Source: Escherichia coli
GTDB lineage: Bacteria > Pseudomonadota > Gammaproteobacteria > Enterobacterales > Enterobacteriaceae
Reading direction: 5' to 3' (one strand)
DNA length: 64,000 bases
Assembly: GCF_022846255.1 (NCBI RefSeq)
Contig: NZ_AP025682.1
In this document: piece by piece, positions 32,598-34,395 of the stretch
Position numbering within the stretch: the first letter of the stretch is position 1
Layout of the letters: each line of letters begins with the position of its first letter
Notes under the pieces: model-generated
The model's database searches: none
What the model saw: only the letters and a program-made list of their open reading frames with translations
Told to the model about the DNA's origin: nothing
Program-made: the position numbers and the translations under genes

Positions 32598-33038
32598 AGT
32601 AAGTACAAAACCTATTCGTTGTATGACAAATGTCACAATTCGATCATGGATAAATCGGGGCAAAAATGCAATGTTGCAGCACTATTTATCTCATATTATT
32701 TGAGGGTTATAACTTCACATTATCCCCGAATTATAAGTGGTAATAATAAAGCGTTATTTAAGAAATATCGCATGTGGAGACGCCATATTAAATATTGTCA
32801 ACCTAAAGAAACTCCTAAAAACCATATTGAATGACACTTAATATAATTCTTAAAAATAGCCAATTGCCGAATTGTTACCTTGCCTGCTATTCCGTTAGCT
32901 GTAACACTTCCTCCTGCATTATTGGAGAGCCAATATTCAATTACCATAATGTCACCTTATATTCGGAAATTAATTTCCGCAATAACCCTTTCTCATCAAC
33001 GACTGTATGCAGAGAGGGTTTGAAAAATTAAACTAAAT

Positions 33039-33077
33039 CAGTGTGTTGGTAGCTAAAAAGCCAGGGGCGGTAGCGTG
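33039..33077 (+). promoter_or_regulatory. JUMPstart element with ops site (GGCGGTAGCGTG at 33066-33077) in the colanic acid operon leader
   Basis: Exact ops consensus GGCGGTAGnnTG preceded by GGTAGC, about 180 bp upstream of wza; the RfaH-dependent anti-termination signal known for cps operons. Confidence 0.75.
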
Positions 33078-33255
33078 TCTGGATGCCTGAAAGACCAGTC
33101 TGAATTATTCTGTCAATAGCCTGCGGATGAAATCAATTTTTTTAGGACTGATGCCAGTTAAATTTTTATTCAATTAACTGCAAGGTAAATGTGCATGGCG
33201 ACATTGCTATTAATAGTGCACAGGATAATTACTCTGCCAAAGTGATAAATAAACA

Positions 33256-34395
33256 ATGATGAAATCCAAAATGAAATTGATGCCATTATTGGTGTCAGTA
33301 ACCTTGATAAGCGGTTGCACAGTACTTCCGGGCAGCAATATGTCGACGATGGGGAAAGACGTCATCAAACAGCAGGACGCTGATTTCGACCTCGACAAAA
33401 TGGTGAATGTTTATCCGTTAACCCCGCGCCTGATTGATCAATTACGCCCACGACCCAACGTAGCGCGCCCCAATATGACGCTGGAAAGTGAGATCGCGAA
33501 TTACCAGTATCGCGTCGGGCCGGGGGACGTTCTTAATGTCACCGTCTGGGATCACCCGGAACTCACCACGCCAGCCGGTCAGTACCGCAGCTCCAGCGAC
33601 ACCGGCAACTGGGTACAGCCTGACGGCACCATGTTCTACCCGTATATCGGCAAGGTTCACGTCGTGGGGAAAACGCTCGCTGAAATCCGCAGTGATATTA
33701 CCGGGCGCTTAGCGACGTACATCTCTGACCCGCAGGTGGACGTTAATATCGCCGCCTTCCGCTCGCAAAAAGCCTATATCTCCGGTCAGGTGAATAAATC
33801 CGGTCAACAGGCGATTACCAACGTGCCTCTGACCATTCTCGACGCTATCAACGCCGCAGGTGGCCTGACCGACACCGCTGACTGGCGCAACGTGGTGCTA
33901 ACACACAATGGTCGTGAAGAGCGCATTTCTTTGCAGGCGCTGATGCAAAACGGCGACCTCAATCAGAACCGACTGCTTTACCCCGGCGATATTCTTTACG
34001 TGCCACGTAATGATGATCTGAAAGTGTTTGTGATGGGTGAAGTGAAGAAACAGAGCACCCTGAAAATGGACTTTAGCGGCATGACCCTGACTGAAGCCCT
34101 GGGCAATGCTGAAGGCATCGACATGACCACCTCCAACGCCAGCGGCATCTTTGTCATTCGTCCGCTGAAAGGCGAGAGCGGGCGTAACGGCAAGATTGCC
34201 AATATCTACCAGCTGGATATGTCCGATGCGACGTCGCTGGTAATGGCGACAGAATTCCGCCTGCAACCTTATGACGTGGTGTATGTCACCACCGCCCCGG
34301 TATCCCGCTGGAACCGTCTGATCAATCAGTTGCTGCCAACTATTAGCGGTGTCCGTTACATGACGGATACAGCCAGCGACATTCATAACTGGTAA
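33256..34395 (+). CDS. wza: outer-membrane polysaccharide export lipoprotein Wza
   Basis: 379 aa; lipoprotein signal (LISGC); first gene of the colanic acid cluster. Confidence 0.95.

Follow-up and report, generated by a model that had tools for sequence, protein, structure and literature searches.

The yegH–wza spacer of Escherichia coli: the known colanic-acid promoter and leader, with a conserved second candidate Rcs site

The spacer between yegH and wza in the window (the whole stretch of 64,000 nucleotides that was analysed) corresponds to the promoter and leader already described for the colanic-acid (cps/wca) operon in E. coli. Because the locus is the same as the K-12 cps promoter and leader, its biology is already known, and the only possibly new elements are an RcsAB-like box close to the promoter (box B) and a further one upstream (box S0), both of which are conserved with fixed spacing. 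Neither of the two Rcs candidates pointed out in an earlier note on this DNA is the published RcsAB box of wza, which is a third sequence (box A). Box B is probably a second, auxiliary Rcs site, and a perfect palindrome of 16 bp, the other candidate, is not an Rcs operator.

The spacer comprises positions 32598–33255. Its length of 658 bp is equal to that of the K-12 spacer and of the spacer in E. coli Nissle 1917, to which it is 99.7% identical. In Nissle and K-12, it is flanked by yegH, which encodes a TerC-family membrane protein and is divergent from wza. The wza gene is the first of the colanic-acid cluster, and its ATG is at 33256. The GC content of the spacer is 35.3% vs 50.7% for the whole window. 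The earlier note had delimited this AT-rich interval of 658 bp exactly. Work on the cps/wza promoter of K-12 was reportedly done by Stout in 1996 and by Wehland and Bernhard in 2000. Relative to K-12, the spacer has approximately 20 substitutions, clustered at 32707–32800 and 32927–33035. Apart from one base in the 5′ part of JUMPstart, the two do not differ in boxes A and B, in the promoter block or anywhere from JUMPstart/ops to the ATG. A near match to the spacer was present in 4831 of 5426 complete E. coli genomes. The other 595 had no near match, and in the strain KE51 the match is limited to the first 71 nt. The region may have been replaced or interrupted in these strains, with group 1 capsule loci and IS elements among the possible causes.

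For the phylogenetic footprint, we fetched the upstream regions of wza from 80 species of Enterobacteriaceae (Escherichia, Citrobacter, Salmonella and Enterobacter to Kosakonia, Cedecea and Buttiauxella). The window and 74 of these loci were aligned with ops as the anchor, giving 75 sequences. The sharply conserved blocks were box A, box B, the promoter block, JUMPstart/ops and three blocks downstream of ops. Positions 32920–33020 were not conserved. The features of the spacer are as follows.

32759–32772, plus strand: box S0, TAAGAAATATCGCA, a putative RcsAB-box-like sequence (matrix score 10.0)
32804–32817, plus strand: box A, TAAAGAAACTCCTA, the published RcsAB box of wza and the single occurrence of this sequence in the window
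32839–32852, plus strand TAATATAATTCTTA, minus strand TAAGAATTATATTA: box B, a putative second Rcs site and a candidate of the earlier note
32880–32908, plus strand: predicted core promoter, from a near-invariant block in 75 sequences
32880–32885, plus strand: predicted −35 element TTGCCT, followed by a 17 bp spacer
32900–32901 (TG) and 32903–32908 (hexamer), plus strand: predicted extended −10 element TG-T-AACACT (TGTAACACT)
32923–32950, plus strand: sigma-70-like match (TGGAGA, 16 bp, CATAAT), 9/12, the sole match of a consensus scan
32964–32979, plus strand: perfect palindrome CGGAAATTAATTTCCG, 16 bp, the only one in the window
33039–33077, plus strand: JUMPstart, Rfam RF01707, model positions 1–38 of 38
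33066–33077, plus strand: ops, GGCGGTAGCGTG, exact, at the 3′ end of the JUMPstart match
33078–33255, plus strand: leader downstream of ops, with near-invariant blocks at 33106–33120, 33139–33165 and 33219–33255

The interval had also been described as non-coding, which holds in substance. The NCBI pipeline calls a hypothetical ORF of 49 amino acids on the minus strand (32798–32947; WP_162829205.1 and a variant) in many E. coli genomes, and this call spans box A, box B and the promoter. We rejected it as probably spurious, since an ORF of at least 40 amino acids is kept at this place in just 12 of the 75 aligned sequences (the window included); the median length is 8 amino acids. A match to the Rfam family ARRPOF at 32667–32809 was likewise dismissed as chance (15 bits, where the gathering score is 127; E=0.53).

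The core promoter was located from a block that is near-invariant in the 75 sequences and consists of CTTGCCTG, a further 12 bases and TTAGCTGyAACAaT. Within it, TTGCCT (the −35 element) and the TG of TGyAACA lie 20 bp apart in 70 of 71 loci. Downstream of the block, both the length and the content of the sequence become variable, and ops follows the −10 element at 151 to 189 bp. Agreement of the E. coli promoter with the sigma-70 consensus extends to just 7 of 12 positions, with the TG in addition. From this arrangement we infer that transcription starts at approximately 32914–32918, which would give a leader of approximately 340 nt.

In their Table S1, Fang et al. 2015 (PMC4381331) give box A as the RcsAB box of E. 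coli wza. The assignment is thus that of a secondary compilation of published boxes, and the reference list of the paper includes Wehland & Bernhard 2000 and Stout 1996. The centre of the box is approximately 105 bp upstream of the predicted start, and the box is 35 bp upstream of box B. It is part of the conserved block TTGTCAAyaTaAAgAAAaTCCTAAAA. Compared with the consensus TaAGaatatTCctA, it matches at 10 of 14 positions and at five of the six strongly conserved ones (T1, A3, G4, T10, C11 and A14), with A in place of G4. It consists of one half-site and an A-run (TCCTAAAA). A position weight matrix built from 13 published RcsAB boxes, with wza left out, gave it a score of 9.0, and 52 of the 75 sequences retain a site with a score of at least 7 at its position. 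The expectation of an Rcs site upstream of wza was correct. However, since TAAAGAAACTCCTA maps to 32804–32817, neither candidate of the earlier note is the published site, and the view that the sequence could not decide between the two is overtaken by this third sequence, which was not among them.

The minus-strand candidate, box B, had been described as TAAGAATTATATTA, with 10 of 14 matches to TAAGAATATTCCTA. The sequence, strand and count are right, but its coordinates are 32839–32852 and not 32838–32851. The count is 10 of 14 in either orientation, with five of the six conserved positions matched (the minus strand is without C11 and the plus strand without G4). As a consensus match, this is at chance level: shuffled spacers contained a mean of 1.5 matches of 10/14, and the probability of three or more was 0.21. 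With at most three mismatches allowed, the spacer gave no match to this consensus. The matrix ranks the box higher. Box B scored 11.2 on the plus strand and 10.6 on the minus strand, above box A and at the top of the spacer; the palindrome had no matrix match. Only 13 positions in the window score at least 9, and boxes B, S0 (10.0) and A make up about a third of them. All three are well below the training sites (9–11 vs 12.4–18.2).

Box B is the best-conserved element of the promoter across the 75 enterobacterial sequences. A score of at least 7 is kept at its position in 72 of them, within the block CTTAATATwAwTCTTAAAA, and TCTTAAAA is nearly invariant. Its centre is approximately 70 bp upstream of the predicted start, and its spacing is fixed: box A is 34–35 bp away, and the −35 element 24 bp. 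In box B, an A-run comes after a single canonical half-site (TCTTAAAA), a form that it has in common with box A, with the yjbE box (TCCTAAAA) and with box2 of rcsA (TCCGAAAAA). Of the two halves of an RcsAB box, the right one has been assigned to RcsB (PMC4325325). In addition, TTAATATAATTC occurs both in box B and in what is called the ‘box1’ region at the rcsA promoter; both regions are AT-rich, and by a rough estimate an identity of these 12 nt could arise by chance about once in ten. Its conservation, the fixed spacings and the sharing of TTAATATAATTC with rcsA box1 together suggest that box B is probably an auxiliary, promoter-proximal Rcs site. We found no reports of Rcs binding at box B in the literature searched, and a search for the literal sequences of both boxes and of the palindrome returned nothing relevant. 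The case for binding of RcsA and phosphorylated RcsB at box B is the analogy with rcsA box1. Direct binding is the leading reading of the box, at somewhat less than even odds.

A box-like site scoring at least 9 occurs at the position of box S0 in 56 of the 75 sequences, mostly as TAGGAAATATCGCA, and the number is equal at a threshold of 7. It is approximately 150 bp upstream of the predicted start and 48–49 bp from box A in most loci. No report of this sequence, which may be a third Rcs site, was found in the literature searched. The spacing upstream of the promoter is rigid (48–49 bp from S0 to A, 34–35 bp from A to B and 24 bp from B to the −35 element), which we read as a probable protein–DNA assembly, with activator sites upstream of a weak promoter. 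We propose, tentatively, that box B might be a hitherto undescribed, universally conserved second operator for RcsAB or RcsB, forming a phased array with A and S0 (approximately 70, 105 and 150 bp upstream, respectively) in which B would contact RNA polymerase. If this is true, the textbook view of colanic-acid activation through a single RcsAB box is incomplete. No second box at a spacing of approximately 34 bp was found in the yjbE promoter, so paired boxes are no general rule. A direct repeat of 19 nt with 79% identity is also present in the spacer (32775–32793, TGGAGACGCCATATTAAAT; 32923–32941, TGGAGAGCCAATATTCAAT). Its second copy overlaps the Escherichia-only sigma-70-like site, and the repeat is probably due to chance.

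Could box B be the operator of wza in its own right? Its matrix score and its conservation, each the highest of the three boxes, favour this, and in a position-by-position count it is closer than box A to the archetypal amsG box TGAGAATAATCTTA. For wza, however, the box listed among the published ones is TAAAGAAACTCCTA, at 32804–32817, and not box B. Mutation of conserved bases of the published wza box reportedly abolished slime production in the work of Wehland and Bernhard in 2000, which also counts against box B as the sole operator. We therefore consider it very improbable that TAAGAATTATATTA at 32839–32852 is the RcsAB operator of wza. The minus-strand candidate is strongly conserved (72/75, fixed spacing) and probably functional, and so it stands as a putative second site and not as the published one. 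The main alternative is that box B is no Rcs site, and that it is bound by another protein that bends or silences DNA, such as IHF, Fis or H-NS, or acts as a phased A/T element. The box is very AT-rich and lies at fixed spacing between the published operator and the −35 element, where a phased A/T element would let RcsAB bound approximately 105 bp upstream reach RNA polymerase. That it carries a single canonical Rcs half-site is in keeping with this reading, as is the 35% GC content of the spacer, since targets of H-NS typically have such a composition. On the other side, the conserved core (TCTTAAAA) is an RcsB-type half-site with an A-run, as in box A, the yjbE box and rcsA box2, and the IHF consensus WATCAANNNNTTR was not seen by eye in the sequence on either strand. 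We regard a role of this kind as rather unlikely and prefer to read box B as an auxiliary Rcs site.

Two further readings concern the variable stretch downstream of the conserved promoter. The sigma-70-like match at 32923–32950 is the best consensus match of the spacer (9/12) and is kept within Escherichia. E. coli transcription could thus begin from this Escherichia-specific site, with a start near 32957, and the block at 32880–32908 would then be a further activator site. However, the site is missing from other genera, which still need a promoter, and a single match is fewer than the mean of 3.5 that the same scan gave in shuffled spacers. The block at 32880–32908, by comparison, has an invariant spacing between its −35 and extended −10 elements. 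A start from 32923–32950 is therefore improbable, and we retain the site as a minor rival only, because it is confined to Escherichia; the promoter at 32880–32908 is preferred.

The palindrome is the second case. The earlier note was right that a perfect palindrome of 16 bp exists; its position is 32964–32979, nine bases to the right of the approximate location (32955–32970) that had been given. Perfect palindromes of this length occurred in 449 of 20000 dinucleotide shuffles of the spacer (2.2%), which makes it mildly unusual. Compared with K-12, the strain has A for G at 32969, and this substitution creates the perfect symmetry. An exact 34-mer with the perfect form (A allele) is present in 414 of the 4831 E. 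coli genomes (approximately 9%). The corresponding 34-mers with G at 32969 are present in 3182 genomes (C flank) and 981 genomes (T flank, the K-12 type), so that the asymmetric form CGGAAGTTAATTTCCG is carried by at least 4163 of 4831 genomes (at least 86%); the perfect palindrome with the T flank had no exact match among the E. coli genomes. Among nine aligned E. coli, the window and Nissle have the perfect form and seven have CGGAAGTTAATTTCCG (K-12, BL21, O157:H7 and four others). Further differences at this place are seen in E. whittamii and in a divergent E. coli. In other genera, the sequence is unrelated and of different length, and the palindrome is missing outside Escherichia. It lies past the conserved promoter and within the transcribed leader, where the spacer is least conserved. 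The RNA hairpin it would form (approximately +49 to +64) has a predicted energy of −6.6 kcal mol−1, compared with −4.9 to −2.0 kcal mol−1 for the common alleles.

As an operator of a dimeric regulator, be it Rcs or a repressor acting just past the start, the palindrome has in its favour that it is the sole perfect one of its length in the window, rare in spacer shuffles, and that its halves resemble IclR-type half-sites (GGAAAT/ATTTCC). Neither the symmetry nor the sequence is kept up among strains and related species as such an operator would require. The symmetry-breaking G predominates in E. coli, the sequences of E. whittamii and the other genera are unrelated at this place, and the palindrome is unlike an RcsAB box. 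The lack of conservation that the earlier note had itself named among its grounds for refutation is seen in most E. coli as well as in other genera. We reject the IclR-type and other operator readings for this lack of conservation and give an operator here hardly any credence. The palindrome is probably a neutral or near-neutral, lineage-specific variant with no conserved function. A second and stronger hairpin in the variable leader appears in the predicted minimum-energy fold at 32984–33020 (AACCCTTTCT ... AGAGAGGGTT, arms of 10 nt). It is present in Escherichia only, and both arms are altered in Escherichia relatives.

Downstream of the variable stretch, the spacer matches JUMPstart (Rfam RF01707; gathering score 35) over the full length of the model, at 53.8 bits and E=3.3e-11. 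This match and the identity of the locus bear out the description of a colanic-acid leader with JUMPstart/ops. JUMPstart is said to go back to Hobbs and Reeves in 1994. The position given earlier for ops, 33066–33077, is exact and falls within the full JUMPstart match. On the non-template (sense) strand, GGCGGTAGCGTG agrees with the 12-mer GGCGGTAGnnTG and has the same sense as wza. The ops element is the loading site of RfaH on the non-template strand. Here it is 190 nt upstream of the wza ATG and approximately 150 nt downstream of the conserved promoter block, and 75 of the 80 fetched loci have it, with at most one mismatch, approximately 190 nt ahead of the wza start. JUMPstart/ops is accordingly placed in the leader of a long polysaccharide operon, with the extent of that leader resting on the predicted start. 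The pairs of the JUMPstart hairpin at 33046–33064 are kept in all 36 sequences folded. Control by JUMPstart and RfaH, as well as activation by Rcs, has been stated for the colanic-acid operon (PMC9976346; PMC3673037).

The stretch from ops to the ATG has a near-fixed length of approximately 190 nt across genera and contains the three near-invariant blocks. No recognisable Shine–Dalgarno sequence precedes the wza ATG at 33256. Such a lack fits RfaH-dependent operons, in which RfaH also aids ribosome recruitment, and the two may be linked at wza. A riboswitch-like or otherwise structured leader was considered and rejected. Beyond the JUMPstart hairpin, RNAalifold on 36 sequences returned just two short helices, neither of which showed covariation; the fold of the whole E. 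coli leader was no better than that of shuffled sequences (z=−1.2). The blocks downstream of ops contain GGA motifs (UAGGAC and ACAGGAU). At 33141–33148, within a conserved leader block (block E), there is an inverted half-site with an A-run, TTTTAGGA, the minus strand of which is TCCTAAAA; this copy is approximately 230 nt downstream of the predicted start, and the full 14-mer has a matrix score of just 4.0. An IS1 insertion between ops and the wza ATG enhanced a colanic-acid phenotype (PMC8117528), and the abstract listing of a CsrA study in EPEC mentions colanic acid (PMC6333774).

Taken together, control of the operon very probably proceeds in two stages, with Rcs-activated initiation followed by RfaH-dependent elongation. 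The action of RcsAB at box A and the dependence on RfaH are taken from the literature; positions, conservation, spacings and the Rfam match were computed here. In the first stage, phosphorylated RcsB and RcsA would bind upstream and activate the weak sigma-70 promoter at 32880–32908. They would do so at the published operator, box A (32804–32817, approximately 105 bp upstream of the predicted start), with box B as a putative second, promoter-proximal site approximately 70 bp upstream and S0 perhaps as a third at approximately 150 bp; both the start and the binding at B and S0 are deductions of ours. Boxes A and B each combine one good half-site (TCCTA and TCTTA, respectively) and an A-run with one degenerate half, which fits a need for the RcsA–RcsB heterodimer. 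In the second stage, RNA polymerase would read the leader of approximately 340 nt, pause at ops and load RfaH. RfaH would then carry transcription through the operon of 20 genes and would also assist the recruitment of ribosomes to wza, which has no Shine–Dalgarno sequence. The palindrome would contribute at most a weak RNA hairpin in the fast-evolving first third of the leader.

The part of the spacer adjoining yegH has sites of its own. CRP and PhoB sites are located at 32621–32648, where ATGACAAtTGTCACAATTCGATCATGGATAA is conserved in many genera. The CRP site TATGAcaaatgTCACA, centred at K-12 position 2137873, is from a Footprint-seq preprint (PMC12871828), and the PhoB ChIP-seq site TGTCACAATTCGATCATG is at K-12 position 2137862 (PMC10294691). 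These sites presumably belong to the control of yegH and not of wza.

The region is a textbook case of Rcs-activated, RfaH-dependent capsule expression, and our analysis has little import beyond annotation. What it provides are exact coordinates for JUMPstart/ops, for the likely promoter and for the RcsAB box that has been published; the recognition of the palindrome as a minority allele without conservation; and the flagging of one further Rcs-like box, or perhaps two, with deep conservation and fixed spacing. This is relevant to models of Rcs activation and to the engineering of colanic-acid and fucosyl-sugar production from this promoter, and is of specialist interest.

Among known Rcs targets, the rcsA promoter offers the closest comparison in our material. 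Two RcsAB boxes (box1 and box2) are reported approximately 170 bp upstream of the rcsA start, with box1 overlapping TGAATTGCCATTAATATA (PMC11879457). In K-12, the rcsA box1 region reads CCATTAATATAATTCCGT, against CTTAATATAATTCTTA at wza box B, and it is 33 bp from the classical rcsA box TAAGGATTATCCGA. With box B of wza taken as putative, both operators are far upstream and consist of two boxes approximately 33–35 bp apart. In both, one box is of the type TAAGG/TAAAG...TCC(G/T)A-AAAA and the other contains TTAATATAATTC. The order of the two types relative to the promoter is reversed between rcsA and wza.

The downstream half of the spacer compares with other RfaH-dependent leaders (rfb/O-antigen, rfa, kps, hly and tra). 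The 39-bp JUMPstart, the small hairpin and the 12-nt ops are alike in these and in wza, and ops is likewise on the non-template strand in the long 5′ leader of a long operon. No difference from these leaders was found; in wza, the stretch of approximately 190 nt from ops to the ATG is unusually conserved across genera in both length and sequence.
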